From NCBI GenBank assembly GCA_902500205.1, contig GCA_902500205.1_4868.1: a stretch of 64,000 nucleotides of DNA; one strand, 5' to 3'. Under the pieces are notes generated by a model. That model searched no databases, was not told the origin of the DNA, and saw only the letters and a program-made list of their open reading frames with translations. Shown in pieces: positions 1 through 57,107 of the stretch. Made by a program: the position numbers and the translations under genes. Each line of letters starts with the position of its first letter. The stretch's first letter is position 1. Source of the DNA: Escherichia coli. GTDB lineage: Bacteria; Pseudomonadota; Gammaproteobacteria; Enterobacterales; Enterobacteriaceae.

Positions 1-2026
1 CCGTGTTGCTGCCGAGAGCGCGAAGCCGGAATACGCCAGCTACATGCCGATCGCTATTTCTGGTGCAGCATCTCTGGCTGCTGACTACGGTAAAACTCCG
101 CTGGTCGCAACTGAATACTACACCAACAAAGACCTGGACAAAAACCTGGGTCTGACCTGGACGCTGAACGTGCGTGCTCTGGAAACTCAATCCAAGTTTG
201 CAGAAACCCTGTTCCCGACCATCACTGTGGACACCAACGACGTCGGCATCACCGTTCGTACCAAAGTTACTACTGTAACTCGTGGTATCCTGAACGCCCT
301 GCTGACCAAAGACGTGGTTGAAGACAACCGTCAGCCGCTGCATAACGCGCTGTCTAACCACAAAGTCCTGCAGGACGATGCTATCCGTATCGTACCTTAC
401 GTGATGGAAACCGGTGAGAACGCGAAGTTCTTCGTATCCGAAGACATCATCGAAAACGAAAACGTTCAGCTGGGTCGTGTGCCGGCGTATCCGACCAACT
501 ACCTGAGCTTCTCTGAACGTCGTCTGAACCTGTTCCAGCTGTCTGCCCATCCGGGTATCGTGCAGGAAGGTTACGATGAAACCGACGAAATCGCACCGGG
601 TGCAGCGCTGGGTAGCCTGCTGCTGTCTGTGCGTAAGCCGACCGAAGAAGCGAAAGATGGCGCGCTGATCAAACTGAACGTACGCGACATGCAGTTCGCT
701 ACCTTCCAGCGTCCTCCTGAAGGTGATGGCCGTGAGCTGGTCCTGCAGTTCCGTCGCACTGTGTTCTCCCTGAACGCCAAGTCTCTGGACTGGAAAGGTG
801 CTGAAATCCCGGCACTGGCCGCTCTGGCACAGAACGATTACACCATTCGTTATTCCATGAACATCAGCATGTCTCTGTTCACCAACGGTCAGTTCTCTGG
901 TCGTGTTGACGTGACTGCACCGTCTCTGGAAATCGAAGGTCTGTACGACGCAACTGGTACTGCTGTTGATATCGAAAGCGGCACCGGTAAAGTGATCATC
1001 GACAACCTGAAACTGGAGCTGCTGGGCTGGCGCTTCGACGGTACTCGTACCAACGAGAACCGGAGAACCCAGGGCCTTCTGCTCGACCCGATTTGGGAAC
1101 AAGAGAACTACAAACTGCAGTACGGTTCTCCGATCATGACCAAATCTCCGGTTGGCGTTGAATACGACGACACCGAACGTCTGGACGACCTCGTTTCTGC
1201 GGTTAACATCCGTAACGAAATGCTGGCTATCACTCAGACTCTGTCTTACACCGAAGCGGTTAAGAACGCAGCTGCGTCCATGATCACTCCGTGGGACAAA
1301 CCTGCTATCCGCGGCCTGGGCCGTCACTGGGTTGCTCCGTGGTACAGCGAAAGCGACTACGAAGTGGACAAAGTGATCCAGTCTCTGGATACCAAAGATG
1401 CGCTCATCAACGCCCGTCAGGGTCTGGTACAGCGTATCGGTGACCAGGTAACTCGTGCTATCCAGGACTCTCGCTTCATGCCGGCTCTGCGCCTGCTGAC
1501 TGCGGACCCGAACGCACTGCCGAAAGTTGTTATCGCAACTGACGAACCGACTGCTGCAATGCTGCTGCTGGTTCAGGGTGACCAGCGTCTGCTGGGCGAT
1601 CGCTACGAGTACGAAGTTATCACCACCAACGATGACCGCTGGCGTGTGAAGAACGAAGCTGACGGCAGCTGGACTCGCCGCCTGCAGTGGGTTCTGAAAG
1701 TTCCAACCGCTGATGATGGTTCTTACTGTGTTCTGAACTGGGGTAACCACTTCTGGTCTCCGATCATGGTAACCAACATCAACATCCAGCGTAACGGCGC
1801 TACCAGCAAAGAGCTGGCAGTACAGCCTCGTAACGCGCACATCTGCCACTGCCCGATCACTGGTCTGATCTGGATTAAAGGTATCACCAAGTTCGTGGAA
1901 GAGAAACTGGCGTTCAACGTCACTACTACTTCCAACGGTACCGGCGGTACTAATGGCGGTAATGCGGGTGATGTTGGCGGCGGCGCTACCCAGCCAGGTA
2001 CTGGCGGTGAAGGCGCTGGCGGCTAA
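1..2026 (+). CDS. 5'-truncated, highly expressed virion structural protein (major capsid protein candidate; tail sheath not excluded)
   Basis: Frame is open from the window edge through ATG 44 to TAA 2024-2026; strongly host-optimised codons (CTG, CGT, GGT, AAC, GAA) unlike most neighbours; Gly-rich C-terminal tail; strong terminator directly downstream. Family not verifiable without a search. Confidence 0.6.
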   Translation, partial: RVAAESAKPEYASYMPIAISGAASLAADYGKTPLVATEYYTNKDLDKNLGLTWTLNVRALETQSKFAETLFPTITVDTNDVGITVRTKVTTVTRGILNALLTKDVVEDNRQPLHNALSNHKVLQDDAIRIVPYVMETGENAKFFVSEDIIENENVQLGRVPAYPTNYLSFSERRLNLFQLSAHPGIVQEGYDETDEIAPGAALGSLLLSVRKPTEEAKDGALIKLNVRDMQFATFQRPPEGDGRELVLQFRRTVFSLNAKSLDWKGAEIPALAALAQNDYTIRYSMNISMSLFTNGQFSGRVDVTAPSLEIEGLYDATGTAVDIESGTGKVIIDNLKLELLGWRFDGTRTNENRRTQGLLLDPIWEQENYKLQYGSPIMTKSPVGVEYDDTERLDDLVSAVNIRNEMLAITQTLSYTEAVKNAAASMITPWDKPAIRGLGRHWVAPWYSESDYEVDKVIQSLDTKDALINARQGLVQRIGDQVTRAIQDSRFMPALRLLTADPNALPKVVIATDEPTAAMLLLVQGDQRLLGDRYEYEVITTNDDRWRVKNEADGSWTRRLQWVLKVPTADDGSYCVLNWGNHFWSPIMVTNINIQRNGATSKELAVQPRNAHICHCPITGLIWIKGITKFVEEKLAFNVTTTSNGTGGTNGGNAGDVGGGATQPGTGGEGAGG

Positions 2027-2056
2027 TAATCCGTAAGGATTACGTTGCCTAAGATT

Positions 2057-2096
2057 AGCTTACTCCCTTCGGGGAGTAAGCTTTTTCTTTTTTTCT
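2057..2096 (+). terminator. Intrinsic terminator (11-bp stem, TTCG loop, T-tract)
   Basis: 'agcttactccc-ttcg-gggagtaagct' followed by 'ttttctttttttc'. Confidence 0.85.
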
Positions 2097-2106
2097 AAAA
2101 ATTTAT

Positions 2107-2128
2107 AGATAGATATTATCTTAGGGAG
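2107..2128 (+). promoter_or_regulatory. Conserved 22-bp promoter-like motif, copy 1
   Basis: 'agatagatattatcttagggag'; just after a terminator, 34 nt upstream of ATG 2162. Confidence 0.55.
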
Positions 2129-2161
2129 AAAGTCATCCGGTTTTAACTTAAGGAGACAGTA

Positions 2162-2245
2162 ATGGAAGTCAATTTAGAGAGATCAAGACTAGTTGCACCG
2201 ATGTTTGATGGGCGCGGTTTTATGGCGAACGGTCACCACGTTTGA
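2162..2245 (+). CDS. Micro-ORF (27 aa) with strong Shine-Dalgarno
   Basis: 'taaggagacagtaATG'; MEVNLERSRLVAPMFDGRGFMANGHHV; lies between two promoter-motif copies; too short for the ORF track. Confidence 0.3.
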   Translation: MEVNLERSRLVAPMFDGRGFMANGHHV

Positions 2246-2304
2246 TACCCTAAAGTTTTTTACGTTAAGGGCACTGGGTATGAACCCGTGCCCAAAGTAA
2301 TCTG

Positions 2305-2326
2305 AGATAGATATTATCTACGTGAA
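2305..2326 (+). promoter_or_regulatory. Conserved 22-bp promoter-like motif, copy 2
   Basis: 'agatagatattatctacgtgaa', 33 nt upstream of ATG 2359. Confidence 0.5.
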
Positions 2327-2358
2327 TAATTCTTTTGGTATTATTACTGGGATGTTCA

Positions 2359-3374: not shown

Positions 3375-5153
3375 GTGTTTAAAGATGCGATTAGGAAGAT
3401 TAAAGAGGCAGGCGAAATAGTGCCTTTTAATCGTGCAATTGCAGAAGGAGTTGGGTACACACAAGCTAAAGACGGGATACATGATCGTGTGGCAACCATT
3501 CTACGTCGTGAGTTGACGTATGATGAAATCGATAACCCGAAATTACCAGAAGGGTTAACGGTGTTAGGCTGCCGTCAGATGTCCCCGTTTGAAGCTTTTA
3601 TCTTTAAGTTATCGAAGTCGGATAACAATTCACGAAACAATCGTGGCCGGTCAATTATTAACATCTCATCCACTGACACGTATATGGTAATGGCCTCGTT
3701 CCGTGTTCCAGGCGACCCCCGTCCGGTGCAACGACCGATGAGCTTACCATTTATTCGTCGTGGCGGCTTAATGAACTACTACGGTACAACGTACCACGTA
3801 GCACCTGTAATCCACCAACCTGGTATTTGTCGTGAGCACGGTGGTATCTTTATTAACTTTGACTTCACCCGCAAGGTGTCTATCAAGTTCTGTAAGAAAC
3901 CAACGAAGATTCTGGTGAACGGTCGTCCGGAACAACTGTTCTTACCAGGCACGTCGAATCTGTTTGTCTCAACCGGACAGATTGGACACGACACCGATGA
4001 GAAGCCGTTGATGTATTGGCTCTTCGGGCGCTACGGCTTTAAACAAGCTGTGAAGCGTTATGCGGGCGTTGATGTGACGATTTGGCCAGCGATTAAAGTA
4101 CGTGATGTGGACTTAACGAAGTATGTGGTGATTCAGTCCGGTGAGCCACAACTCGCGAAGACCATCCAGTACGTACTGTTGGTTAAACGTGAAGATATGC
4201 CTAACACCGATGCAGGGCGTTGGGATCAGAATGAACATCTGTTGCTGGTAGCGACTGCTGCGTTCTTCAAAGCAGCGCACTACTACGCAGGTAAACAGAA
4301 CAGTAAGAACGGTCGTGCACCAACACTGCCGGGGCTGTTTACACAGATTAACGAAATGGCAATGGACGAAGATATTGCGAACCTCAACTCTGCAGCCTCC
4401 TGGCGCGAAGTGTTGGGTCGTAGTATTCGCGGACTGAAGCCCTCGGATATCGAACTGAGTCGCAGTATGGACAGCCACTTCCAGGAATGTGAACGCTATG
4501 TCAACAGCACCTTCCGTGGTGAGCTGATGGCAAACGATCCGTCCATCCCTGATGATTTGGATATGTTTGATTTCCTCTGGTATACCACGCAGCTGATGGT
4601 GCGTACTCGTCTTACCAAACAAGATGATATTCCGTCTATGTACGGAAAACGTCTCACGGTAACCGATTACTTACTGTTGGGCCAACGTGGCTTTACCACA
4701 ACGATCTCGAAAATACGTTGGAAGCTGGGGCAGTTGGAACATCGGACTCCAGAGACAGCGGCGAAGTCTATTCGAGACGCACTGAACAAACAGATCGTGC
4801 TCAATCTGGTGATGCGCACCATTACGAGCAACGGCGGTATCAGTTTCTTCAATGCCTCTACAGAATCAATGGTATTGGCAGTGTCTACGCACGCCATCGG
4901 TCAAACCGAAACCGATGCTAAGCGTTCGAAGAAAGGAGGCAAGACCGTTAACTTGAACGACCGTACTAAGCACGCATCCGCGTCGCATCTGGAATGTGGT
5001 AACGTCTACTATATTCCTAAGTCGGCACCGTTTAAGGCGAACATCCTCAACCCGTACATGAAGACCAACCCAAGTTTGGTAATGATGCGGAACCCTAAAC
5101 TGGACCCGTACATCAGACCGACCGAAGAAGACATTGCTAAAATCGGCCGCTAA
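3375..5153 (+). CDS. Hypothetical protein (592 aa), possibly virion-associated
   Basis: Long ORF, GTG start after 'gagggagg' SD; no recognisable catalytic motif. Confidence 0.8.
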   Translation: MFKDAIRKIKEAGEIVPFNRAIAEGVGYTQAKDGIHDRVATILRRELTYDEIDNPKLPEGLTVLGCRQMSPFEAFIFKLSKSDNNSRNNRGRSIINISSTDTYMVMASFRVPGDPRPVQRPMSLPFIRRGGLMNYYGTTYHVAPVIHQPGICREHGGIFINFDFTRKVSIKFCKKPTKILVNGRPEQLFLPGTSNLFVSTGQIGHDTDEKPLMYWLFGRYGFKQAVKRYAGVDVTIWPAIKVRDVDLTKYVVIQSGEPQLAKTIQYVLLVKREDMPNTDAGRWDQNEHLLLVATAAFFKAAHYYAGKQNSKNGRAPTLPGLFTQINEMAMDEDIANLNSAASWREVLGRSIRGLKPSDIELSRSMDSHFQECERYVNSTFRGELMANDPSIPDDLDMFDFLWYTTQLMVRTRLTKQDDIPSMYGKRLTVTDYLLLGQRGFTTTISKIRWKLGQLEHRTPETAAKSIRDALNKQIVLNLVMRTITSNGGISFFNASTESMVLAVSTHAIGQTETDAKRSKKGGKTVNLNDRTKHASASHLECGNVYYIPKSAPFKANILNPYMKTNPSLVMMRNPKLDPYIRPTEEDIAKIGR

Positions 5154-5184: not shown

Positions 5185-6855
5185 ATGAGCATTACTGTTG
5201 AACAAATCAAAAACGTCATCGTTAAACACCTCGATCAGGATGCGGTGCTGTCGCAGCTGAATAACGTGATGCGTAGTCGTAGCATTCCGCCAGATCAGGC
5301 GTTAAAGATTGCGACGTATGTTGCGGCATGGGCAGCATCCAAAGGGGGTAGTGAAGCACAGGTTATCGCATATGCGGTCGACGCGTATAAAGCAGCTGCC
5401 TATCAGCAGGTGCATAACGCGGGCGACGCGTATAACGACGATCGTCACACCAAACTGGTTAATGCTTGGGAACAAGTCGGTAAGATTCTTGCCGAAATTC
5501 GTTCTCAGCAGTCTGGCGGTTTGGGTGGCAGTGGTGGTTTAGGTGGTGGTAGCAACGCAGGTGGGTTACTGGGCGGTAACAGTTCTGGCGGTGTTCGTGT
5601 TACTGATGGCCTGACCATGTCTTCTGCGCCATCTGGTGGTGTTAAGATTGGTAACACAGATGCGGCACTAACCGTGATTGCTGGCGGTGAAGGTCTTAAC
5701 CTGGTCAATGATCCTATTCTGAACCCACAACCGGCGCAAGTAGCCCCAGCACAACAGCCCCGGCCTGAACCAGCACCGGTGCCTGTACAACCAATGCCGG
5801 TGTCTAATGCTACAGTTAATAACCCAGTGCTTTCCCCACTCGGCGCAACAGAAGAAACCGAGAAGGACACTATCAATGGCCCAATTAACAACATTCTGCA
5901 GGAGATTGATTTGATGGAAGACTACGCACTTCACGAGCTGAAAACCCCCGAGCTTAAAATGTCGATTCCAGCGAAGGAAGCTAACAGTCGCATTAAGCAA
6001 TCTGTTTACGCGGAAACGCGTGATTGGGCTACACCGTTGCAAGATATCTTTAACGGTAATGAAGAGGTTGTTTTCTACGACGGGGCTGACCTGATTGTGC
6101 GTGCACGGGATAGTTATCGCGCGTATCTGGTCGGTGTTAACACTGATATGTGCGAACGCATGAAGCAATTTGTTGCTAAGCACGACGCGTTGAAATCCGA
6201 TCTCGACAGCCTGGCGCTGGTAGAAGATGTTGAAACTATCATGGCTAAGGTGAAACGTACGATCGATGAACTGCGTAAGAACACGAAAGAACTGCACGAT
6301 TATGCGATTGCGAACAGCAGCGAAGCAGAAGTGGTTATCAGTGAGATTTCTCGCTTTGCTAATGCGTACCTGGCGAACATCACGTTCTTGGTACACAATG
6401 CGCTGTCGCTGGGCACTAAGCGCGGTAAAGATGTGCCGAAGTTCAAAGCCATCGATTTCGAACGCAAAATCAGCGATATTGATTTCTTCGTAAAAGATCT
6501 GTTCACTGCAACCGCTGGCGACAACGGCGTCAGTGAATATGAAGACTGGTTCCGTGACCTGTTCTTGATGGTGGCGAACTCTCTGCGCAAACTGACTATT
6601 AAGCTGAGCGATTCCGGCAAAGTAGTTAATCTGATTCAGAGCCAGTTCACTATTGTAATTCCAGGCATGTACCATTCCGTTGATAAGCATGATGTGGTTA
6701 CGGTAGCGTCTTTGGGCAATACCGCAGACCCTGTTGTATCTATCTACGAAGCTGTGCAGGAAAACGTGCCACATGCAATTGTATTGATGCAGCTGCCGCA
6801 GCACACCTATCTGCTTCTGAGCAATGGTGAGAAAACTGCACCAGTGTTGTACTAA
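5185..6855 (+). CDS. Hypothetical protein with Gly-rich and Pro-rich low-complexity linkers
   Basis: 'taaggag' SD before ATG 5185; internal 'SGGLGGSGGLGGGSNAGG' and 'PQPAQVAPAQQPRPEPAPVPVQPMP' segments. Confidence 0.8.
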   Translation: MSITVEQIKNVIVKHLDQDAVLSQLNNVMRSRSIPPDQALKIATYVAAWAASKGGSEAQVIAYAVDAYKAAAYQQVHNAGDAYNDDRHTKLVNAWEQVGKILAEIRSQQSGGLGGSGGLGGGSNAGGLLGGNSSGGVRVTDGLTMSSAPSGGVKIGNTDAALTVIAGGEGLNLVNDPILNPQPAQVAPAQQPRPEPAPVPVQPMPVSNATVNNPVLSPLGATEETEKDTINGPINNILQEIDLMEDYALHELKTPELKMSIPAKEANSRIKQSVYAETRDWATPLQDIFNGNEEVVFYDGADLIVRARDSYRAYLVGVNTDMCERMKQFVAKHDALKSDLDSLALVEDVETIMAKVKRTIDELRKNTKELHDYAIANSSEAEVVISEISRFANAYLANITFLVHNALSLGTKRGKDVPKFKAIDFERKISDIDFFVKDLFTATAGDNGVSEYEDWFRDLFLMVANSLRKLTIKLSDSGKVVNLIQSQFTIVIPGMYHSVDKHDVVTVASLGNTADPVVSIYEAVQENVPHAIVLMQLPQHTYLLLSNGEKTAPVLY

Positions 6856-7584: not shown

Positions 7585-10329
7585 TTAGAGGACGTTGTCT
7601 GGGTTGTCGTCGGTAGTTCCTTCACCGCCTTCTGTGCCTTCCGTTCCCTCGGTAGTTGTTTCCGTGGTTTCGGTCGACTCAGTAGTTTCCTCTGTACTAT
7701 CACCACCGGTGCCGTTATCCGTATCGAGATCGAGGTCTAAATCATCGTCACCCCCACCGCCGAGATCCCCATCACCACCGCCGGTGTCACCGCTCGCATC
7801 AAAACCACCACCGAATCCGCCGGAAGCATCGTTAGGATCAAGGTCGGCATTCTTCGCTAACGTTTCCAGTCGCCCGGTGAAACGTTTCGCCAATTGAATC
7901 AGCGTTTTCGAAGCAGCCATCGCTTCATCAGTCATCATGGTGATGTTGTCCTGACGAGAATCATCGTCGTAAACCAGATCGAAGAAGTCGGTTTCAATAC
8001 CTTGTTTACGCAGCCAGTTGCGCGTATAGAAGGATTTGATCATCGTCTTCAGATCGTTCGGGTCCATCGAGATGCCTTCTTGCTGGAGTTGCGCAGCAAT
8101 GTCATCCGTTACAACCAGATCAGCCAGCTTCTCAAAGAACTCCGTACGTTTATCGAACAGCTCCATCTGCGAAGCTGCTGCAGAGGTGTCTGGCGGTGGT
8201 AAGGTTACTTTCATACCGTTGATAAACGCAGCCAGATACTCAGAGACCTTTTTCGTAATCTGGTCAGTAGTCATCCCATTGCCGTTAGCATTGATGTACT
8301 CTGCAATGATTTTAATCATCGCTGATTGCAACGACGGAGAGGCCAACATCCCATTAACTACGTAACGTGTCAGTGGCTTAGAGAGAATCTCTTGCTTCTT
8401 AACAACCTGCTGGGTGACCAGTAACGATTTAGAGAAGATCTGTGAAGCAAACTCGATGTTCTCGGGGGTCATTACCAGGTCAGGGTCAACACCTGCGATG
8501 TGACAAGTACGTCGTAACAGACCTTCGTCGAAATCCTTATCCGGGTATTTATAATCCGGCGTAGTGTCCGACACAGACACTTTGGTACTACCGTAGTAGT
8601 CGTTACCAATAACGTTAAACGCAATACCTGCGTTTGTCGTCATTGCCCAGGTGTCGTTCATGTCCCCCCACATCGGTTGACGACGGTTATAGGAGTTCAT
8701 GATGTCTGTTTTCAGCTGGTCAATTGTTTTCTGACCGTTCATGTCATCTGGTGCCAACTCAATGTCGTACTGCATGTGACGTGCAGAGTTCAACACCGCA
8801 GAGTTCATGGTAGCGAACAACAGCGCCATACGGACAGTAGAGATAACGAACGAGCGTTCGGTAATAGATACACCGATACCATCTTCATCAAAGTCCGTGG
8901 CAAAATAGCAAAGGTTTTCCGCAGGAATATAGATAACCTGCGTATGACGTTTTGCCAGATGGCGCGCCAGCATGATACGGCTGAACGTTTCGGTTACTGT
9001 CATGCTAATCTCAGCACCACCCAACGCCTCACCCAGAGCTTTGGTTAGCTGGTCTTCAGCAATTTCACCATAACGCGCTGTTAAGCGGTTAGCAATGTCT
9101 GGTGTGATTCGGGTTGTGTTGCCCATCCCCAGATTCGCACGGTTGATTGTTGAATCCACCATACCGTCGTTGTTCAGGTAGTTCATGAAGTTCGCATCAC
9201 CGTAAAGTGTGGAGCGCGAGTTAATGAAGTTACCCATTTCGTCAACGATGGCCAGATAACCTATGGGGTTACGAACATCGTCGCCGATAACGAGCGGGAG
9301 TGTGGACTCTGCTGGCAGTAATCGTTCCGTGTATTCGATTTTGTTGGCATCGGAGAAACTCATCTTCGGTACTTCGCCGTAAAGCTTTTGCTCAGGCGTT
9401 TTCTGGTACGCTTCGTTGAGGTCGCCGATGTTGATTAAACCGAGTTTTGCCTTCTCTTGTTCACTGTCTGTGAACTGGTCAGCGTTATACTCTGACGCAC
9501 CTGTCGGCGTAGAAGGTTGTTCATATGCGTACTGCTCTAACTGACCGAACAGGCCGGTGCGAGCATTCTCCTGTGCTACACGGCGATAAGCCTCTGGTAG
9601 CAGGGTAATACGCGGGTTGTCGGTGATAACGATATCCAGGGAAGCTAACATACCGTCTGCTTTAAACGGACTGTTAGGGGCTGCTGCAAAGTTAAGTTTA
9701 ATGGTTTGTGGCTTGGTGGGCTTGTCAGCGCCACGTGCACGACCCAGAATACTTTCTACACCAACCTTCGGTTTGTTTTCACCGCCAATCTTGCCCAGGA
9801 TACCCAACTGACGTTCAAAGAAGTCAGATTGGCTACGGCGCAACGATTCGGTTGCAACAGACGGCTTTAAGCCGAAGAGTTCATCGAATCCGGTATCTGA
9901 AATCAGCAACACCGGGCTCGCGCCTTTGGATTTCAGTGCATCGTAAATCCACTGATACAGTTTGTTGGGTAACTGGCGCGTGTGGTCATGGAATTCACGC
10001 ACAGGTTCCAACAACTGTTGACGCAGGTCGATCGGGATATCAGCCACGTTGTCGTAAATCAGCGTGGTGTTAATCAAATCTTTTGTGGACAGGAGTGAGG
10101 AGGTCGCGATGGTAACAATGACCTCTAACTCAGGGAGCGCATCAAAGATACGTTCGGCATTTTTAACGGTGCGAATGCGGCTACTCGCAATGCCTGTGAG
10201 TTCTGTACGGGTTGGTGTAACGCCGCCATCTTCACGCTTACCGCGTTGCTGCTGAGCCGACGGGCTCGTGGACTTACGCAGTATGGCAGCTACCGCGGGG
10301 TCGCCCGTTAATTTACTAATATCTTCCAT
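7585..10329 (-). CDS. Large protein (914 aa) with acidic low-complexity C-terminal tail; only long minus-strand gene in the window (portal-like candidate, speculative)
   Basis: Uninterrupted 2.7-kb ORF; C-terminus rich in D/G/T/E repeats ('DLDLDLDTDNGTGGDSTEETTESTETTETTTEGTEG'). Confidence 0.8.
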   Translation of the reverse strand: MEDISKLTGDPAVAAILRKSTSPSAQQQRGKREDGGVTPTRTELTGIASSRIRTVKNAERIFDALPELEVIVTIATSSLLSTKDLINTTLIYDNVADIPIDLRQQLLEPVREFHDHTRQLPNKLYQWIYDALKSKGASPVLLISDTGFDELFGLKPSVATESLRRSQSDFFERQLGILGKIGGENKPKVGVESILGRARGADKPTKPQTIKLNFAAAPNSPFKADGMLASLDIVITDNPRITLLPEAYRRVAQENARTGLFGQLEQYAYEQPSTPTGASEYNADQFTDSEQEKAKLGLINIGDLNEAYQKTPEQKLYGEVPKMSFSDANKIEYTERLLPAESTLPLVIGDDVRNPIGYLAIVDEMGNFINSRSTLYGDANFMNYLNNDGMVDSTINRANLGMGNTTRITPDIANRLTARYGEIAEDQLTKALGEALGGAEISMTVTETFSRIMLARHLAKRHTQVIYIPAENLCYFATDFDEDGIGVSITERSFVISTVRMALLFATMNSAVLNSARHMQYDIELAPDDMNGQKTIDQLKTDIMNSYNRRQPMWGDMNDTWAMTTNAGIAFNVIGNDYYGSTKVSVSDTTPDYKYPDKDFDEGLLRRTCHIAGVDPDLVMTPENIEFASQIFSKSLLVTQQVVKKQEILSKPLTRYVVNGMLASPSLQSAMIKIIAEYINANGNGMTTDQITKKVSEYLAAFINGMKVTLPPPDTSAAASQMELFDKRTEFFEKLADLVVTDDIAAQLQQEGISMDPNDLKTMIKSFYTRNWLRKQGIETDFFDLVYDDDSRQDNITMMTDEAMAASKTLIQLAKRFTGRLETLAKNADLDPNDASGGFGGGFDASGDTGGGDGDLGGGGDDDLDLDLDTDNGTGGDSTEETTESTETTETTTEGTEGTEGGEGTTDDNPDNVL

Positions 10330-15261: not shown

Positions 15262-15900
15262 ATGCAATTACAATTTCGTCAACGGTCTGTACTACTACCG
15301 TTTAGCGCTATATTAGGTTCGTTTACCAAAATGCTGTCTGTGGATTTTACTGCAGCTGAGAAAGAAGCGCTGTTATTGGCGGCAGTCGAAGAAGTATTGT
15401 GGGAGGCATTTTACGTAGTGCCGTTTCGTAGCTGCTTAAACGCCCCGTATGTTGAAGGGCAGTTTGTCAGCGCGCTTTCCGCCGCGATTACCAAACGTAA
15501 ACTAAATGCCATGGCGCATGTCAAAGAGATCACCGCGCAACGAGGACGGATATTCGCTGCCGTCAGAAATGTGTTAATTAAAGAAGGGTTTCTTGCAGAC
15601 TCGCTAGGTCCCGAGGTTCCTTGGGAGCCGGGTCATCCACCGCGTCAGTTCGACCACGGGTACAAGTTAAGTATAATTATGCCACGCGGTAAGCGTGACG
15701 TCTCATTGGGGAAATGGTTACAGATAAGCTGGGTTCGCCCTACTATCGATTGGCAAGAAATGTCGGTCAATCGCTATCTGGAACACCTGGCAAAAACACC
15801 GGCACAGTTTCACCGTTCAACAATCCTGCCGCTACACATGCTGTTAAAACCGTCCCTGTCATTGGCAGAAGCCATATACCTGCTTAGTGGAGAGAAGTGA
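15262..15900 (+). CDS. Hypothetical protein, translationally coupled to the downstream GNAT
   Basis: 'aaaaggaat' SD; stop overlaps the GNAT start. Confidence 0.7.
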   Translation: MQLQFRQRSVLLPFSAILGSFTKMLSVDFTAAEKEALLLAAVEEVLWEAFYVVPFRSCLNAPYVEGQFVSALSAAITKRKLNAMAHVKEITAQRGRIFAAVRNVLIKEGFLADSLGPEVPWEPGHPPRQFDHGYKLSIIMPRGKRDVSLGKWLQISWVRPTIDWQEMSVNRYLEHLAKTPAQFHRSTILPLHMLLKPSLSLAEAIYLLSGEK

Positions 15901-22110: not shown

Positions 22111-22149
22111 ACCCACTCCTTCGGGAGTGGGTCGACTCTATTCTTTTTT
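22111..22149 (+). terminator. Intrinsic terminator (TTCG loop)
   Basis: 'acccactcc-ttcg-ggagtgggt' followed by 'cgactctattctttttt'. Confidence 0.85.
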
Positions 22150-22171
22150 GGATAGATGTTATCTTAGGGAG
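22150..22171 (+). promoter_or_regulatory. Conserved 22-bp promoter-like motif, copy 3
   Basis: 'ggatagatgttatcttagggag' abutting the terminator; 95 nt upstream of ATG 22267; leader holds two hairpins. Confidence 0.55.
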
Positions 22172-22266
22172 ACGTGCAAAAATTACGTTTCATCCTTAGC
22201 ATATGCTAGAAGCCGTTGTGAGTCGGTTAAAACTCACCAACTTAAACTTAAAAGCGAGTAAACAAA

Positions 22267-23031
22267 ATGTCAAAACTCAATAAAGCAGCAACCAAAGAAT
22301 GGCTTTCCGTACCTACCGCAGATGGTCAGTATCGCTACGTATTCACGTATGACGAAAATGACCTGACGGCAAAAGGTATTCCGCACATGTTAAGTCACAA
22401 ACTGATTAACAGCGTGACCGGTGCCACCTTAGTAGGTTCCGGCGGAAGGACAATCTTTTGTGCCCCCAGTTGGGATCAAACTGAACTGACCAAGAAAATG
22501 CTCGGTGAACTCCGGGCGGTTTCCGCACGTCTGTTCTTTAAGCTGATTGCCAGAAAACCGGCGCTATGGGATGCATGGTCTCAACACAATCTCGAGGCAT
22601 TGCGTGGGGAGTGTCTGAATTACGTATTGGTCGAAGAAGTGATTGATAACTTCTTCGCTAACGTGATGAAAACCGAACGACTGCGTAAGCCGAACACCGA
22701 CGGTTATTCGTTTGTCTCCGTTAAGAGCAGCGAACTGATTCGGGGTGAGTTTGCAGGGCATGTCCTTTCGGTAACTCGGAACCTGAGTTTCTTTGGCCAG
22801 CCTTTCAGTGAGCCAGTTGTTCAGGTAACTTATGATTTCCGTTTACCGTTTACTGTTCGGAATGAGTTTGACCCAGGTCAAGTTTCGTTGAAGTTTTTAT
22901 ATCCTCTCCAGTCATGGCCGTTATTGAAGAGGTTCTTAGCTGAGCCCCGTGTAGCTGCGGTGCTGCAAGCGTGGATTGATTCATGGCCAGAAGGCATTGA
23001 GGAAAAATCGAAAACGCGAGTTGACTTCTAA
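22267..23031 (+). CDS. Hypothetical protein (254 aa)
   Basis: ORF downstream of promoter motif copy 3. Confidence 0.75.
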   Translation: MSKLNKAATKEWLSVPTADGQYRYVFTYDENDLTAKGIPHMLSHKLINSVTGATLVGSGGRTIFCAPSWDQTELTKKMLGELRAVSARLFFKLIARKPALWDAWSQHNLEALRGECLNYVLVEEVIDNFFANVMKTERLRKPNTDGYSFVSVKSSELIRGEFAGHVLSVTRNLSFFGQPFSEPVVQVTYDFRLPFTVRNEFDPGQVSLKFLYPLQSWPLLKRFLAEPRVAAVLQAWIDSWPEGIEEKSKTRVDF

Positions 23032-23765: not shown

Positions 23766-23805
23766 CCCCTCTTACCTTCGGGTAAGAGGGTATTGTCTTT
23801 TTTAC
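23766..23805 (+). terminator. Intrinsic terminator (TTCG loop)
   Basis: 'ccctcttacc-ttcg-ggtaagaggg' followed by 'tattgtctttttt'. Confidence 0.85.
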
Positions 23806-23851
23806 AGATCGTAACAGTCTTATGCTTTTTGCTTCCAGTCCACTAAATTTC

Positions 23852-23873
23852 AGATATATATTACTTAGGTGAG
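23852..23873 (+). promoter_or_regulatory. Conserved 22-bp promoter-like motif, copy 4
   Basis: 'agatatatattacttaggtgag'; 49 nt upstream of ATG 23923; identical to copy 7. Confidence 0.55.
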
Positions 23874-23922
23874 AGTTACTACTAAACTCTCTAATCGACT
23901 ATTAATCTAAAGGAGTATTCTA

Positions 23923-24288
23923 ATGCGTTTTAAACATCAAACCGTTGTGTTGGCAAAGAAAGCATTTCTGGTTCGTCTCTCTTACATTATTACTCGTGTC
24001 ACTGCGAAGGATGTTACGCAGAAAGACATTGCATTGTTGGTAGGCTGCTCACCGTCACAAATCTCTGCGATTAAAAATGAACGCGAGAAAGCCGTGACTA
24101 TCGAAACTCTGATGCGTGTTGCCGATACACTGCGCCTGAATTACGAAATCGTTTACCGTTCCATTAACGGCAAATGCCGCCATAGCTTCAAAATTGAATC
24201 CTGCACCGACTACATGAATAACTGTCCTATCCGGGTACGAGAAACAGGACTTAAAGTCATGGCACGTAAACCTTCTGCAGTGATGTAG
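23923..24288 (+). CDS. Helix-turn-helix (XRE/Cro-like) transcriptional regulator (putative)
   Basis: 'QKDIALLVGCSPSQISAIKNEREKAVTIETLMRVADTL' resembles an XRE-type HTH; strong 'aaaggag' SD. Confidence 0.65.
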   Translation: MRFKHQTVVLAKKAFLVRLSYIITRVTAKDVTQKDIALLVGCSPSQISAIKNEREKAVTIETLMRVADTLRLNYEIVYRSINGKCRHSFKIESCTDYMNNCPIRVRETGLKVMARKPSAVM

Positions 24289-24712: not shown

Positions 24713-25369
24713 ATGGCGAAGGCCCCTAAAACTGTAGCAAAAGATTCAATGGCAAGCAGCGCGGTTAAATCCACAAAAACGCGCACCACTGAATCCACGC
24801 GTACATCTAGCATTCCTAAACCGGATGTAATTGTACCGATCAGCGAGCGTCTGAAAACAATTCACATCGAGCGCGAATATCCGATTGACCTTGGTCAGGA
24901 AATCGTTGCGGTTAACCTTGGTAGCGACGTACGCTTTACCATCTATAAAGGCGCGCATCTGAACAACATGGTGCTAACCCGTGGCGATGAAGTTATCGGT
25001 CTGTCTCGTTACGACACGCAAATCGAAAACATCTATCCGGTGTTTGCAGTAGCGATGTTGCGTTTGTTTATGCAGGATAAAGCCGACCTTTGTGGTCAGC
25101 TTGCGGGTATGGCGGATCGTGTTGGTCATATTCTGCCGACGCTGGTGAAACTGTACCCAGTTACGATTGACGTGGCGTTTACTACGGTAGACAACAACCA
25201 CGGTTATATCGTACTGACCAAAGACGGTAAAGTTATCGCTGGTAATCTGACTGATAACGAAGTGCAGAAGCATATGGACAAATTTGCGTTCATGGTGAAT
25301 CGCTTGGCGCACGTCAGTGTCAAACATTCCGAAACTTGGACGACGCTTGTCTCCAAACCGGAACTGTAA
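24713..25369 (+). CDS. Hypothetical protein (218 aa)
   Basis: 'ttaaggag' SD before ATG. Confidence 0.75.
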   Translation: MAKAPKTVAKDSMASSAVKSTKTRTTESTRTSSIPKPDVIVPISERLKTIHIEREYPIDLGQEIVAVNLGSDVRFTIYKGAHLNNMVLTRGDEVIGLSRYDTQIENIYPVFAVAMLRLFMQDKADLCGQLAGMADRVGHILPTLVKLYPVTIDVAFTTVDNNHGYIVLTKDGKVIAGNLTDNEVQKHMDKFAFMVNRLAHVSVKHSETWTTLVSKPEL

Positions 25370-28917: not shown

Positions 28918-29185
28918 TCGTACAGTGTCGAAGTCTAAAGAAGTCGTTTACAACGTTGAAGACGGTGATGTAATGCAGTTTCGTGCCGTCATTGACGAAC
29001 AGCACGTACTCCAAGTCGTTTATTCGAAAGAAGAAATGACTCGCGCACATAGCCGCGTGTTAGAAAAACTCGTTGCGAAAGCCAAACAGCGCGACGGTAT
29101 TAAATCCTACAACGTCATGTACGGTTATCAGTTACGTGAGGTGGAAGGGGAGCTGTTAATCACCCCTGTTCCGGTAACGGCGTAA
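28907..29185 (+). CDS. Small hypothetical protein
   Basis: ATG 28907 after 'ggaga' (track start 28895). Confidence 0.6.
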   Translation: MQINRTVSKSKEVVYNVEDGDVMQFRAVIDEQHVLQVVYSKEEMTRAHSRVLEKLVAKAKQRDGIKSYNVMYGYQLREVEGELLITPVPVTA

Positions 29186-30122: not shown

Positions 30123-30414
30123 GCCCACGCTGACGCACCAGGAACTGCACGTCCGTTTTATTCGGGCGTTCACACCCCCGTTAGGTGGTGAGGTACACGA
30201 TCGTTCCGTGGTTGCAGAAGTTAAAGGTATCGGCGAAGAACTAATGACACTGTCTAATATTGTGACGGGTGTTGAGTTCACGTTACCGTTAAACGTATTT
30301 CGGTTTATTCCGCGCGTAAACGAAACACTGCTCATCGACCGTGTGCATCATCGGATTATGGCGCAGGTACATCCTAGACGTAAAGAGTATGTGCGCTTAG
30401 AGATGATGGTTTAA
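30082..30414 (+). CDS. Small hypothetical protein; start uncertain
   Basis: Track frame 29863-30414 overlaps the previous gene; ATG 30082 after 'aaagg' (or ATG 30100) is more likely. Confidence 0.5.
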   Translation: MPQDSFMSNLNPIEPTLTHQELHVRFIRAFTPPLGGEVHDRSVVAEVKGIGEELMTLSNIVTGVEFTLPLNVFRFIPRVNETLLIDRVHHRIMAQVHPRRKEYVRLEMMV

Positions 30415-30427
30415 CGCACGACTTTTC

Positions 30428-30449
30428 AGATAGATGTTATTTTACTGAA
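30428..30449 (+). promoter_or_regulatory. Conserved 22-bp promoter-like motif, copy 5
   Basis: 'agatagatgttattttactgaa'; 27 nt upstream of ATG 30477. Confidence 0.5.
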
Positions 30450-30476
30450 CCTAACTGTAAAGAAAGGAAAAAGTAG

Positions 30477-30782
30477 ATGGCTAAACAATACACAATTGTT
30501 AAACGCGCAGGTACAACTCTGCTGTACGTGGAGAAAGGTTGTGAGAACACTACAACCGCCAAGAAACTGAACCTGCAAGGGTTTCTGTATCAAGGTCTCC
30601 GTGCGGGTTTGACCATCACTTTTAAAGGCTTACCACAGGCGAAGAATCTGCGCGTCGTACGTGCAGACGGTGTAGAGCGTGCCTTGGTAGCCGACACCCC
30701 GGTTGATACTATCCCTGCCAGTAAGAAGGCAGCGAAAGCAACCAAGAAAGTCGTCGATAAACGCAAACGCGCTGTCGCTTAA
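30477..30782 (+). CDS. Small basic protein (possible nucleic-acid binding)
   Basis: Lys-rich C-terminus 'KKAAKATKKVVDKRKRAVA'. Confidence 0.7.
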   Translation: MAKQYTIVKRAGTTLLYVEKGCENTTTAKKLNLQGFLYQGLRAGLTITFKGLPQAKNLRVVRADGVERALVADTPVDTIPASKKAAKATKKVVDKRKRAVA

Positions 30783-39122: not shown

Positions 39123-39165
39123 TACCAGCCACCCCGAAGGATGGCTGGTACGCTTTATTTTATTT
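39123..39165 (+). terminator. Intrinsic terminator
   Basis: 'taccagcca...tggctggta' followed by 'cgctttattttatttc'. Confidence 0.75.
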
Positions 39166-39166
39166 C

Positions 39167-39188
39167 AGATAGATGTTATCTCAGTGAA
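39167..39188 (+). promoter_or_regulatory. Conserved 22-bp promoter-like motif, copy 6
   Basis: 'agatagatgttatctcagtgaa'; 56 nt upstream of ATG 39245; leader hairpin 'ctctga...tcagag'. Confidence 0.55.
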
Positions 39189-39244
39189 CCTCTGAAATTT
39201 ACGTTTCAATCAGAGCTTATGTCATGTATTAAGGAGCAATTAAA

Positions 39245-39577
39245 ATGTCCAAAGTCTATCACATTGCGGTATTGCGTCAGGCAACTGACCTTGAAGGCGA
39301 CGGTGAACTTCGAATGCAGGAAGCCATTCTGAGCACCGTTAAAGAACTTAACCAAGCAAACAATTTCGATGCACGCTTCGAGGCGCTGCCTGTAAGCCGT
39401 AACGCTTTCTACGGCAGTCAAATCCTGGCAACCCAGTTTGCGATGGCTTTAAGTGACTTGCGCAATAACCCTAGTCCTGAAACCGCGACGAAGATGAACA
39501 AACTGTCGTTATGGATGAATAACCTGGACGTCCCCGCAGCATCCACTGTAAGTGGTTTGGGGGTGGTTAATGGGTAG
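39245..39577 (+). CDS. Hypothetical protein (110 aa)
   Basis: 'ttaaggagc' SD before ATG. Confidence 0.75.
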   Translation: MSKVYHIAVLRQATDLEGDGELRMQEAILSTVKELNQANNFDARFEALPVSRNAFYGSQILATQFAMALSDLRNNPSPETATKMNKLSLWMNNLDVPAASTVSGLGVVNG

Positions 39578-43649: not shown

Positions 43650-43688
43650 ACCCTACTCCTTCGGGAGTAGGGTTTCTTCTTTTTTTGC
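43650..43688 (+). terminator. Intrinsic terminator (TTCG loop)
   Basis: 'accctactcc-ttcg-ggagtagggt' followed by 'ttcttctttttttg'. Confidence 0.85.
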
Positions 43689-43711
43689 CTAGTCCGATTA
43701 CAATTATTTTC

Positions 43712-43733
43712 AGATATATATTACTTAGGTGAG
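43712..43733 (+). promoter_or_regulatory. Conserved 22-bp promoter-like motif, copy 7
   Basis: 'agatatatattacttaggtgag', identical to copy 4; 51 nt upstream of ATG 43785. Confidence 0.55.
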
Positions 43734-43784
43734 AGTTAACAATTAACTCTTATCTAATCGACCATTATCTTAAGGAGTTTTAAC

Positions 43785-44231
43785 ATGTACATTCTGAATA
43801 ACGAACTTACTAAATACGCTAGCAAAAACCCGATTATGATTTCTTTCCTAATCGTGATGGCGGCCAACAAACAAGACCCTAGCGAATTCACTACTGAGGA
43901 CTTCGAAGAGATTATCGCCAACGCCAAAGAAGCCACGTTCCAGACCACAGAACCTACTCGCGACGAGTTCCCTCTAGGTGAAGCCGGCGATGTAATGTTT
44001 AACGACATGATTGCTTCGTACTACATCAATAGACGTGGTATGGAAATCGAATACGACGAACTTCCTACTAGCAGCTTTGCTGAAATGATTCGTGATTATC
44101 GTCGTCAAGTTGTCTCTGACGACATCGTAAAGAAATACATGGCACAAATCAGCCCATTCAGTCTTGAATTCGAAAACCGTGCAATCGCCTTAGCGACGCA
44201 TCGCCTGCGTTTAGAAAAAGAAGTACACTAA
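43785..44231 (+). CDS. Hypothetical protein (148 aa)
   Basis: 'cttaaggag' SD; downstream of promoter motif copy 7. Confidence 0.8.
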   Translation: MYILNNELTKYASKNPIMISFLIVMAANKQDPSEFTTEDFEEIIANAKEATFQTTEPTRDEFPLGEAGDVMFNDMIASYYINRRGMEIEYDELPTSSFAEMIRDYRRQVVSDDIVKKYMAQISPFSLEFENRAIALATHRLRLEKEVH

Positions 44232-45117: not shown

Positions 45118-45915
45118 ATGTCTTTTACTTCAAAACAGAATCTGCTAAAACTCATCAACGAAGAGAATAAGATAAGCCCACCGCTTACCTTTGACGATGT
45201 TGATATCGGACTGCCGGAGGTTGTGTCAGTAGACGGTCGTGATTCGGAGGTAGTCCTTACCTCGAAGATGCGCGGTGATGAAGGTACGCAAGTGATTGTG
45301 GACTACCATCGTCGTCCATTAGAGGACTACCTTAAAGGCGATGTTGCCTTTGGAGACGAGGACGTGCAAACCACGCACGACTTACTCGCGGCGATTAACG
45401 AGCGTTTTAATCTGTCTATCTTACCTGAGGATATCGAAGATAACCCCATTGATGGACAGACGCACACAGTCGTTGCTGTTGAAACTTCCCACGAGTGGCG
45501 AAGTCAAGCGGTCATCGAGCTGAAACCTGCTACACCTCTGGCAGAAGTAATAACCAATACAGAGTTGAGCGGTCTTCTGTACCCGGATCACCAGGACATC
45601 CAGTTGGGTCAGGCGTATATCTATTCGCGCGACATCGATTGTAGCCACATCTCTCGTTTCCTGAGCCTCTTAGCGGTCGGTATCGAAGTAGATGACACGG
45701 CGTTAGCAATCGAACTCAACAAATGTGTTCCTGAGATTTGGGTGGCTGAAGATACCCCATCCCCGTATAACTTGCGTGGTGCTACTGTCGTATTCGACGG
45801 CGTACCTGCAGACTTACCGGGAGCAAATACGGCGTTCGCGAAAGTCGTGTCAGTGCAACTGACCGATAAATGTACGAACTTCCAGGGCACCCTCAACTTA
45901 CACTTTAACAACTAG
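45118..45915 (+). CDS. Fibre-like paralog 1 (virion appendage family; function inferred)
   Basis: Shares the family N-terminal signature (about 80 aa, '...RNT...YYDR.NL...') and C-terminal '...L.LHFNN'. Confidence 0.8.
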   Translation: MSFTSKQNLLKLINEENKISPPLTFDDVDIGLPEVVSVDGRDSEVVLTSKMRGDEGTQVIVDYHRRPLEDYLKGDVAFGDEDVQTTHDLLAAINERFNLSILPEDIEDNPIDGQTHTVVAVETSHEWRSQAVIELKPATPLAEVITNTELSGLLYPDHQDIQLGQAYIYSRDIDCSHISRFLSLLAVGIEVDDTALAIELNKCVPEIWVAEDTPSPYNLRGATVVFDGVPADLPGANTAFAKVVSVQLTDKCTNFQGTLNLHFNN

Positions 45916-56120: not shown

Positions 56121-57107
56121 ATGGCTTTTACAATTCGTTGGACGAACAATAACCCTGGGGCTTCGACCGTGAAGCTGTACCGCGACACCAAACCTCTGGT
56201 GCGTACGGCATTACCTGAACCTCTGGCAACGTTCACTAACGGGGAAACTGAGTATACTGACCGAACAGCGATACTGGGGACAACGTATTACTACATGACC
56301 ACTGTGACAGTGGGAAGCCGAACACTGTTCAGTCCGCAGAAATCAATTCTGATTCAGAACCGTCGCGGTATCGGCATCGTGACTCCACAGTACGGTGATG
56401 ACCGCTTTGCGTATTACGGGTATGTGGCGTACGGTGAATTGCCTAGCGCGGCTGATTATCCGCCAGGGTTTGTGGCCATTTCTGGATATGACCCAACTGT
56501 TAAGCCGGGCTTGATTAAGTTCCAGCTAGACGGTAAAATTCTGTATCTGTTTAGTGGTCTTCGTGTGAACGGCAACACGCTGTATAGCCGTGATGCGATT
56601 TATAACGCGGGTTTGCTGTACGGTGTGGAGGGACCTGGTCCGGAAGGCGGTCATGGTGATTTACCTGACGTTGACCAGGCTGGGGAGTTTACGTGGTTGG
56701 GTGACCGCTATCGGATGCGCCTGCTGCGCGGGTTAACGCTCGACAGTGAAAGCCCGGTCATGACACTCGACGCACAGTGGAACGGTAAACTCCATGACGC
56801 GTCACCGTATACTGCCGATAGCGAATACAACCGACTCATCTATGGGATAAGTAGCTGGTTCCCAGAAAAGAAAAAAGTGATGTCCCTGATAAAGTGGTCG
56901 AACACCAGCATATTCGGAAGTGGATCGCTGGTGGCAGGCCGTGGGGCGCATTGTCAGGAGTTTGACCCAGACAGTAAGTTGGGGCTGACGCGCGGATGGG
57001 CGGCGGCGGATTCCACTGATACCGTGGATAACCTCCAGCGTATACAACATGTCCCTGCGACCGTGGGCGGTATTTGGATTCCAGTAATCGAGCTTATCGA
57101 GGATTAA
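56121..57107 (+). CDS. Cassette gene B2
   Basis: Paralog of B1. Confidence 0.85.
   Translation: MAFTIRWTNNNPGASTVKLYRDTKPLVRTALPEPLATFTNGETEYTDRTAILGTTYYYMTTVTVGSRTLFSPQKSILIQNRRGIGIVTPQYGDDRFAYYGYVAYGELPSAADYPPGFVAISGYDPTVKPGLIKFQLDGKILYLFSGLRVNGNTLYSRDAIYNAGLLYGVEGPGPEGGHGDLPDVDQAGEFTWLGDRYRMRLLRGLTLDSESPVMTLDAQWNGKLHDASPYTADSEYNRLIYGISSWFPEKKKVMSLIKWSNTSIFGSGSLVAGRGAHCQEFDPDSKLGLTRGWAAADSTDTVDNLQRIQHVPATVGGIWIPVIELIED

Follow-up and report, generated by a model that had tools for sequence, protein, structure and literature searches.

Candidate early promoters of an SPN3US-like jumbo phage share their architecture with phiKZ early promoter sites

The early promoter consensus of the jumbo phage phiKZ was reportedly defined by Ceyssens and colleagues in 2014, and a cross-phage promoter prediction by Lavysh and colleagues is said to have followed in 2016. 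We take the core of the phiKZ early promoter to be TATATTAC, relying on sites upstream of known early genes and on the verbal descriptions given in papers. Jumbo phages related to phiKZ encode two multisubunit RNA polymerases (RNAPs), a virion enzyme (vRNAP) and a non-virion enzyme (nvRNAP) (PMC7598289, PMC5105663). According to a review, every RNAP-encoding jumbo phage has a motif upstream of its presumed early operons that can be detected from sequence, and wherever transcripts have been profiled this motif is the early promoter consensus; these motifs are AT-rich, approximately 10 nt long and centred near −10 (PMC7598289). Wicke et al. described the phiKZ early promoter from 32 sequences, including that of PHIKZ054, as an extended −10 box with a T-rich motif upstream of −19 (PMC8244752). 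The 28–32 early promoter sites of phiKZ have been attributed to the virion RNAP (Wicke 2020, PMC8244752; Putzeys 2024, PMC10914365).

Here, we analysed a stretch of DNA of 64,000 nucleotides, hereafter called the window, in which a recurrent intergenic motif had been noted. The first 6 kb of the window share 99.2% identity with Escherichia phage vB_EcoM_EC001 and 98% with Salmonella phage SPN3US, and, judged by these matches, the source of the window is an SPN3US-like jumbo phage of the genus Seoulvirus, which is related to phiKZ. SPN3US is a 240-kb jumbo phage, and position 1 of the window corresponds approximately to SPN3US position 70,380; the window starts inside the major capsid gene (44..2026). 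The remainder consists of small genes without known function, nucleotide-metabolism genes and virion structural genes, nearly all of them on the plus strand. The genome to which the window belongs is that of a phiKZ-related phage with both a virion and a non-virion multisubunit RNAP.

The initial annotation listed seven copies of the motif, at 2107, 2305, 22150, 23852, 30428, 39167 and 43712, all on the plus strand, and our scans recovered exactly these copies at these coordinates and in this orientation. With its 21-mer consensus and up to 3 mismatches, five window sites were found against 0.01 expected, and none of 100 shuffles reached five. The remaining two sites (23852 and 43712) carry the variant AGATATATATTACTTAGGTGAG, which aligns to the other five without gaps. 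A weight matrix of 37 positions (38.6 bits), made from 22 copies in SPN3US, was then used to scan both strands of the window. The seven sites scored 33.6–47.2 bits, and no eighth site scored above 8 bits on either strand, the best score among 50 shuffles being 11.9; the list of seven sites is therefore complete for the window. The high scores of the sites are partly circular because their orthologues were among the copies used to build the matrix, but the absence of additional sites is not. All seven copies lie in non-coding DNA, as had been claimed, and since 5.8% of the orthologous 50 kb is non-coding, the probability of this placement by chance is approximately 2e-9. The next start codon lies 28–96 nt past the end of the motif, in agreement with the 27–95 nt given previously.

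A scan of the complete genome and a weight matrix had been proposed as a check on the motif, and both bear it out. In SPN3US, the core AGATAKATRTTAY with at most one mismatch occurs 22 times, in all cases on the plus strand, compared with approximately 1.2 copies expected from shuffles; this genome-wide scan used the 13-mer core and not the full matrix, so weaker copies outside the window may be missed. Twenty of the 22 copies are intergenic and lie 45–154 nt ahead of a plus-strand gene. The two others are the copy at 25226, inside gp30 and 280 nt before gp31, and the copy at 174954, which overlaps the final codons of a macro-domain gene.

Alignment of the 22 SPN3US copies indicated that the conserved block is longer than the 22 bp originally described. 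It spans 35 nt, from −32 to +3, and is asymmetric, where positions are counted from an invariant G taken as the putative +1. From its upstream end, the block comprises T at −32 (16/22 copies), an invariant A at −29 (22/22), an A-tract of variable composition at −28 to −24, TTT at −23 to −21 (15–17 of the 22 copies), C at −20 (16/22) and AGATA at −19 to −15 (20–22 of 22). These elements are followed by the octamer kATATTAy at −14 to −7, in which positions −13, −12, −10 and −8 are invariant and −9 is conserved in 21 copies, and by C at −6 (15/22), T at −5 (19/22), the invariant G at +1 (22/22) and A at +2 (19/22). Both A(−29) and G(+1) lie outside the search pattern, and their invariance is therefore independent evidence for a single functional element. 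The invariant G, six bases after the octamer, is likely to be the transcription start, as predicted from this alignment. In this register, the AT-rich block lies near −10 (octamer, −14 to −7) and the T-rich element upstream of −19 (TTT, −23 to −21), matching the published description of the phiKZ early promoter, if the putative +1 is correct.

An AT-rich octamer at this position could also belong to host sigma-70 promoters, in which case TATTAT (−12 to −7) would be the −10 hexamer and the upstream A-tract an UP element. TATTAT agrees with TATAAT at five of six positions and lies at the canonical distance from a purine start, with an A/T-rich block upstream. However, no −35 hexamer is present at 16–18 bp: the best −35 match averages 2.41 of 6 positions, equal to the 2.43 obtained at random positions, and the previous remark that a sigma-70 −35 box is missing is thus borne out. 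The extended −10 TG is also absent, positions −15/−14 being A and G/T, and a consensus scanner made no call that used the motif hexamers. Strong conservation at −29, −23 to −21, −19 to −15 and +1 is not a feature of sigma-70 promoters. The same architecture recurs in phages that infect Pseudomonas, Erwinia, Cronobacter and Salmonella/E. coli. Moreover, phiKZ and AR9 are reported to transcribe their early genes without the host RNAP, in a rifampicin-resistant manner, and without a need for newly made protein (PMC7598289). We consider the sigma-70 reading very unlikely, and a weak use of the TATTAT hexamer by the host RNAP may occur.

In the first 100 kb of the phiKZ genome, intergenic TATATTAC sites on the plus strand lie 28–100 nt upstream of gp5, gp6, gp10.1, gp31, gp36, gp41.3, gp54, gp58.1, gp68 and gp76. 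phiKZ gp68 is a subunit of the nvRNAP and a product of an early gene (PMC4666361), and gp54 (PHIKZ054) carries the published phiKZ early motif (PMC8244752). The phiKZ sites and the SPN3US copies share the register T..AAA...TTT.A....kATATTAy......G, that is, T(−32), the A-tract, TTT(−23 to −21), A(−19) and the octamer, which is followed six bases on by a G. The best pair is the phiKZ site before gp58.1 and the window copy at 23852, in which 22 of 25 bases are identical. The TATATTAC octamer alone is not over-represented in the AT-rich phiKZ genome (7 copies compared with 5.2 expected per 50 kb), and therefore only the extended architecture is informative. Two intragenic phiKZ octamers do not have the extended context and look like chance matches. 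The phiKZ gp53–gp54 spacer also contains a separate A-rich block ending in TACT, as would be expected of the published 'middle' motif at a secondary start (PMC8244752).

The initial annotation proposed a promoter class read by a phage-encoded RNAP and not by host sigma-70. The identity of the phage, the published architecture and the register shared with phiKZ support this proposal. More specifically, we interpret the motif, with a probability of about 0.85, as a set of early promoters in a jumbo phage of the SPN3US type, related to phiKZ, whose most likely reader is the virion RNAP injected with the DNA.

The same annotation stated that no polymerase gene was recognisable in the window, and this is incorrect, because the ORF at 3375..5153 on the plus strand matches PHIKZ123 (phiKZ gp123) and its SPN3US homologue gp77 has been named as part of the nvRNAP β subunit. 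The match to chain E of PDB entry 7OGP, PHIKZ123 in the solved structure of the phiKZ non-virion RNAP, has an E-value of 3.1e-20, and SPN3US gp77 is the N-terminal fragment of nvRNAP β (Thomas et al. 2016, PMC5105663). This nvRNAP subunit gene is the second gene downstream of copy 2 of the motif. Its neighbour gp78 (5185..6855) was considered as a homologue of the sigma-like phiKZ gp68, and no PDB or Pfam match was obtained. The SPN3US annotation lists β/β′ fragments, and motif copies lie 0–2 kb upstream of all four nvRNAP β/β′ genes of SPN3US, with plus-strand copies at 15614 before gp22–gp23, at 28969, 45 nt before gp34–gp35, and at 72684 before gp76–gp77. The vRNAP genes of SPN3US (gp42, gp218, gp240, gp241 and gp244) are encoded outside the window, and no motif copy is present within 5–20 kb upstream of them.

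This arrangement bears on the possibility that the motif is a promoter of the non-virion RNAP, of the middle or late class. Such a reading has one point of contact in sequence, as the phiKZ middle motif (AAAATTACC, or TACT after an A-rich repeat) shares TTAC with the core of one of the two subclasses described below, subclass B (PMC4666361, PMC8244752). It is nevertheless unlikely because the copies precede the nvRNAP genes themselves, whose products would be needed before that enzyme exists; the gene at 3375..5153 would thus encode a product of these promoters and not their reader. The argument from gene order is suggestive only, because some nvRNAP genes of phage 201phi2-1 do not have a nearby early promoter (PMC11512511). 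The registers also disagree: phiKZ has its middle motif centred at −22/−24, and its late motif, TATG, coincides with the start. In phiKZ late promoters, the G of TATG is the start and there is no upstream conservation, whereas positions −3 to +1 of the motif described here are variable except for the G (a-g-t-G) and conservation further upstream is strong. Finally, the genes downstream of the copies encode small proteins without known function, an HTH protein and nucleotide-metabolism enzymes, and the structural blocks of the window (approximately 7–22 kb and 45–64 kb) contain no copy. We regard transcription by the nvRNAP as a highly improbable explanation, and reading by the virion enzyme remains our preferred one.

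The copies had been described as lying directly after an intrinsic terminator. This holds for five of the sites, each of which is preceded by a hairpin followed by a T-rich run (2057–2082, 22112–22131, 23767–23790, 39125–39148 and 43650–43673), and not for the sites at 2305 and 30428. A GC hairpin (2269–2293) without a T-run lies ahead of site 2305; at 30428, the upstream stop codon almost adjoins the site and only a weak hairpin is present. The terminator that follows the major capsid gene (2057..2095, plus strand) has an 11-bp stem, a TTCG loop and a T-run, with a folding z-score of −4.6, and would insulate promoter copy 1 from the capsid gene upstream.

Copy 1 (2093..2129, plus strand; core 2107–2128, putative +1 G at 2126; 47.2 bits) would drive a micro-ORF of 27 codons on the plus strand (2162..2245). 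Copy 2 (2291..2327, plus strand; core 2305–2326, putative +1 G at 2324; 43.5 bits) lies upstream of the gp76 homologue (ATG at 2359) and the nvRNAP subunit gene, and the orthologous site is retained in phages SEGD1, Asesino and CR5. The micro-ORF is the 5′ remnant of a 232-aa gene that has undergone an internal deletion of approximately 620 bp. Window positions 2027–2226 and 2243–2365 align to positions 828–1027 and 1651–1773 of SEGD1 (L007), respectively, and the N-terminus of the micro-ORF product, MEVNLERSRLVAPMFDGRGFMA, resembles that of SEGD1_076, MVINLEKSRLVAPMFDGRGFMA. The deletion is shared by EC001, SPN3US and the window. SEGD1 and Asesino carry a gene of 700–800 bp in the space that separates the copies, and in these phages each copy is located 53–55 nt before its own gene; the orthologue of copy 1 lies 55 nt ahead of the intact SEGD1_076 in SEGD1 and ahead of gp92 in Asesino. 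Because SEGD1 and Asesino retain the intervening gene, copies 2107 and 2305 are best explained as promoters that serve two consecutive genes, with only a remnant left of the first. The pair is not a tandem duplication.

The five other copies are also on the plus strand. Copy 3 (22136..22172, putative +1 G at 22169, 36.1 bits), with the hairpin at 22112–22131 ahead of it, lies upstream of the ORF at 22267..23031 and the thymidylate kinase gene. Copy 4 (23838..23874, putative +1 G at 23871, 44.0 bits) belongs to subclass B, with the TATATTAC core, and precedes a Cro/C1-type HTH gene at 23923..24288 (HTH_3 match, 2e-7). Copy 5 (30414..30450, putative +1 G at 30447) has the lowest score, 33.6 bits, and is situated in an intergenic gap of 62 nt upstream of the ORF at 30477..30782. 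Copy 6 (39153..39189, putative +1 G at 39186, 40.0 bits) follows the terminator hairpin at 39125–39148 and is located upstream of the ORF at 39245..39577 and a series of small genes without known function. Copy 7 (43698..43734, putative +1 G at 43731, 45.4 bits), the second member of subclass B in the window, follows the terminator at 43650–43673 and lies upstream of the ORF at 43785..44231.

The copies fall into two subclasses. Subclass A (AGATAGATATTATCT) is half-palindromic, with 5-bp inverted arms in the arrangement AGATA-N5-TATCT. Subclass B comprises 6–7 of the SPN3US copies, two of which are in the window (23852 and 43712), and additional members are present in Asesino and CR5. The inverted arms raise the possibility of an operator, that is, of an AGATA-N5-TATCT half-palindrome bound by a dimeric regulator, such as the HTH protein encoded at 23923..24288, either in place of promoter function or in addition to it. 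The HTH gene is indeed the first gene behind one of the copies. However, the second arm is missing from subclass B and from the phiKZ sites (TACCT and TACTA), in which all other elements are kept, and all 22 SPN3US copies point the same way and stand in a constant relation to the genes downstream. A symmetric operator would not need an asymmetric conserved block of 35 nt. We regard the operator reading as extremely improbable, and the description of the motif as a promoter is retained below.

A 5′ hairpin in the predicted transcripts had been reported as a general part of the layout; it is present at approximately four of the seven window sites. Among the SPN3US leaders, 11 of 22 open with a stem of 5 bp or more that begins at +1 to +3, compared with 18% of the controls, which were random genomic 32-mers starting with G (P = 6e-4). 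The leaders do not fold more stably than random genomic 32-mers (P = 0.14), and their sole distinguishing feature is the 5′-terminal position of the stem. Stems that begin at the invariant G fit this base as the 5′ end of the transcript. Stem-loops at the 5′ terminus shield bacterial mRNAs from 5′-end-dependent decay.

In subclass B, the leader has a recurrent organisation, consisting of a 5′-terminal stem-loop, the sequence TAATCGACyATTA and a Shine–Dalgarno sequence, as judged from folding and alignment of 11 leaders from three phages. The stem starts at +1 to +3 in all 11 leaders, and the stem sequences differ. In the window, the leader of copy 4 (23871..23922, plus strand) contains the stem-loop GAGAGTT...AACTCTC followed by TAATCGACTATTA and the Shine–Dalgarno sequence, and that of copy 7 (43731..43784, plus strand) contains the stem-loop GAGAGTTAA...TTAACTCT followed by TAATCGACCATTA and the Shine–Dalgarno sequence. 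The leaders were folded one by one because the MAFFT alignment was out of structural register. Gene duplication was rejected as the source of the subclass-B cassette, since the two downstream proteins in the window have no mutual similarity. When the whole window was searched against Rfam at gathering thresholds, nothing matched, and the motif and its leaders therefore belong to no curated RNA family.

A further speculation, which we consider unlikely, is that subclasses A and B are functionally distinct types of early promoter. Subclass A would be shut off by a phage DNA-binding protein, for example the HTH protein encoded behind copy 4. Subclass B would be a mobile promoter–leader cassette with its own post-transcriptional control, placed before unrelated genes and almost unchanged from phiKZ to the enterobacterial jumbo phages.

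The element is kept across at least three genera of enterobacterial jumbo phages. Erwinia phage Asesino (Erskinevirus) has an identical core at the orthologous intergenic sites, upstream of gp72, gp83, gp92 and gp93, while the flanking genes have only approximately 74% nucleotide identity. Cronobacter phage CR5 (Derbicusvirus) carries the motif ahead of CR5_056, 064, 072 and 090, where it differs at no more than two positions. When IMG/VR was scanned with the exact pattern, several copies per contig were found only in contigs of approximately 220–250 kb, and the other hits were scattered single matches.

We propose a pathway for early transcription in SPN3US-like phages based on these observations. 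The vRNAP (SPN3US gp42, gp218, gp240, gp241 and gp244) travels in the capsid and reaches the cell together with the DNA. It would recognise a composite element made up of A(−29) and the A-tract, TTT(−23 to −21), cAGATA(−20 to −15) and the −10-like octamer kATATTAy(−14 to −7), and transcription would start at the invariant G, six bases past the octamer. The resulting early mRNAs would have leaders of 30–100 nt, approximately half of which would begin with a stem-loop, and the intrinsic terminators upstream of most copies would insulate each early unit in a genome in which early and late genes are interleaved. The early mRNAs would encode the second polymerase and proteins for host takeover, and the subunits of the non-virion RNAP would subsequently transcribe the later genes.

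The element falls into an established class, that of the early promoters read by the virion RNAP in phiKZ-like jumbo phages, and motifs of this kind have already been described as detectable in all phages of the group (PMC7598289). Searches of the literature for the motif strings (TATATATTAC, ATAGATATTAT and others) returned unrelated papers only, and no paper on the SPN3US transcriptome or promoters was found; for SPN3US-like phages, we also found no data on 5′ ends, timing, rifampicin or in vitro transcription. In the papers accessible to us, we did not find the 22 SPN3US sites, the −32 to +3 extent of the element, its two subclasses or the register shared with phiKZ. These SPN3US-specific details extend the known picture and do not change the understanding of how these phages work.

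For annotation, the seven sites in the window (22 genome-wide) would show where the early transcription units of an SPN3US-like phage lie. They offer an explanation for the 'islands' of small genes without known function and nvRNAP genes amid the structural genes, each bounded by a terminator and then a promoter. According to a 2017 paper, purification of a vRNAP had not been achieved (PMC5312081), and reviews from 2020 and 2026 named no recognition factor of the vRNAP (PMC7598289, PMC13282480). The invariant or nearly invariant elements described here, A(−29), TTT, AGATA, the octamer and G(+1), provide a list of targets for mutagenesis in the study of promoter recognition by the vRNAP, and SPN3US is a practical test system because amber mutants in vRNAP subunits exist.

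Among the known systems, the phiKZ early promoters are the closest. Like them, the sites described here are intergenic, co-oriented with the genes and located before nvRNAP subunit genes and small genes without known function, and their number is similar (22 here and 28–32 in phiKZ). The two differ in that the majority form here is GATATTAT after a strongly conserved AGATA (−19 to −15), whereas phiKZ keeps AGATA loosely (aAGAT or aACAG); furthermore, the hosts here are enterobacteria and the start sites are predicted from sequence.

The single-subunit RNAP promoters of T7 and N4 are likewise long, highly conserved and strand-specific with a G start, and the N4 polymerase is also carried in the virion. 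However, T7 has 23-bp promoters read by a single-subunit enzyme, whereas the presumed enzyme here is a multisubunit one with split β/β′, and the N4 vRNAP reads a DNA hairpin, whereas the promoter here has a −10-like AT-rich core and no hairpin. Arbiol et al. reportedly described in 2010 the PeSLs of T4-type phages, modules of an early promoter and a stem-loop that recur before unrelated genes. The subclass-B promoter-plus-leader cassette also recurs before unrelated genes, but the T4 cassettes use host sigma-70 promoters. The early promoters of 201phi2-1 and AR9 resemble the sites described here in having an AT-rich motif approximately 10 bp upstream of the start that is predictable from sequence, in their location before early genes without known function and in belonging to a two-polymerase cascade (PMC11512511, PMC5312081). 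In contrast, AR9 has a different motif sequence and uracil in its DNA (PMC5312081), and only six sites were recovered experimentally in 201phi2-1 (PMC11512511).

The TAATCGAC element is part of a recurrent promoter-plus-leader cassette, which is found at 23871-23922 and 43731-43784 in the window and at 56294, 65413, 94239, 113986, 165687, and 223277 in the related phage SPN3US. A TATATTAC-type promoter is followed by a 5'-terminal stem-loop, the single-stranded segment TAATCGACyATTA, and a Shine-Dalgarno sequence; the stem-loop is variable in sequence, and TAATCGACyATTA is conserved. The repeated copies precede unrelated genes, and copies are also carried by Erwinia phage Asesino and Cronobacter phage CR5. 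The leaders of the promoter copies at 22150 and 39167 share another element, A(A/T)TTACGTTTCA (22181-22194 and 39197-39210, respectively), located approximately 13 nt downstream of the putative start in both cases and absent from the remainder of the window.

The first gene downstream of the fourth promoter copy (23852) encodes a Cro/C1-type helix-turn-helix protein (23923-24288; Pfam HTH_3, 2e-7), which is a candidate early regulator. Immediately downstream of the gene for a non-virion RNA polymerase subunit lies a homolog of SPN3US gp78 (5185-6855). SPN3US gp78 was reported to be essential, with a possible regulatory role suggested by the absence of many proteins from its amber mutant (PMC5105663). 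A PDB search with the homolog returned no match, and Pfam gave only a sub-threshold match.

Neither the window nor SPN3US carries a minus-strand copy of the motif. The only long minus-strand gene of the window (7585-10329) is a virion structural gene, and the minus-strand blocks of SPN3US likewise consist of structural genes. Outside the window, a good copy at SPN3US 25226 (genome piece L002) lies within the gp30 coding sequence, 280 nt upstream of gp31, and may act as an internal early promoter.

Between the first two motif copies, a micro-ORF of 27 codons (2162-2245) is the surviving 5' end of a 232-aa gene, whose full-length counterpart is retained in SEGD1 (SEGD1_076) and Asesino (gp92). 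In the lineage of the window phage, SPN3US, and EC001, the remainder of the gene was eliminated by an internal deletion of approximately 620 bp.

In the gp53-gp54 spacer of phiKZ (45456-45475 of genome piece L010), the TATATTAC site is preceded at a distance of approximately 100 nt by an A-rich block ending in TACT, which agrees with the middle-promoter motif in the literature and with a secondary start site reported for PHIKZ054. In the window, the terminator hairpins that precede the promoters (2057-2082, 22112-22131, and 43650-43673, and also 23767-23790) constitute a separate sequence family, whose members share the core ACTCC(C)TTCGGG(G)AGT and a TTCG tetraloop. They are reminiscent of a conserved terminator motif described for phiKZ (PMC10914365).
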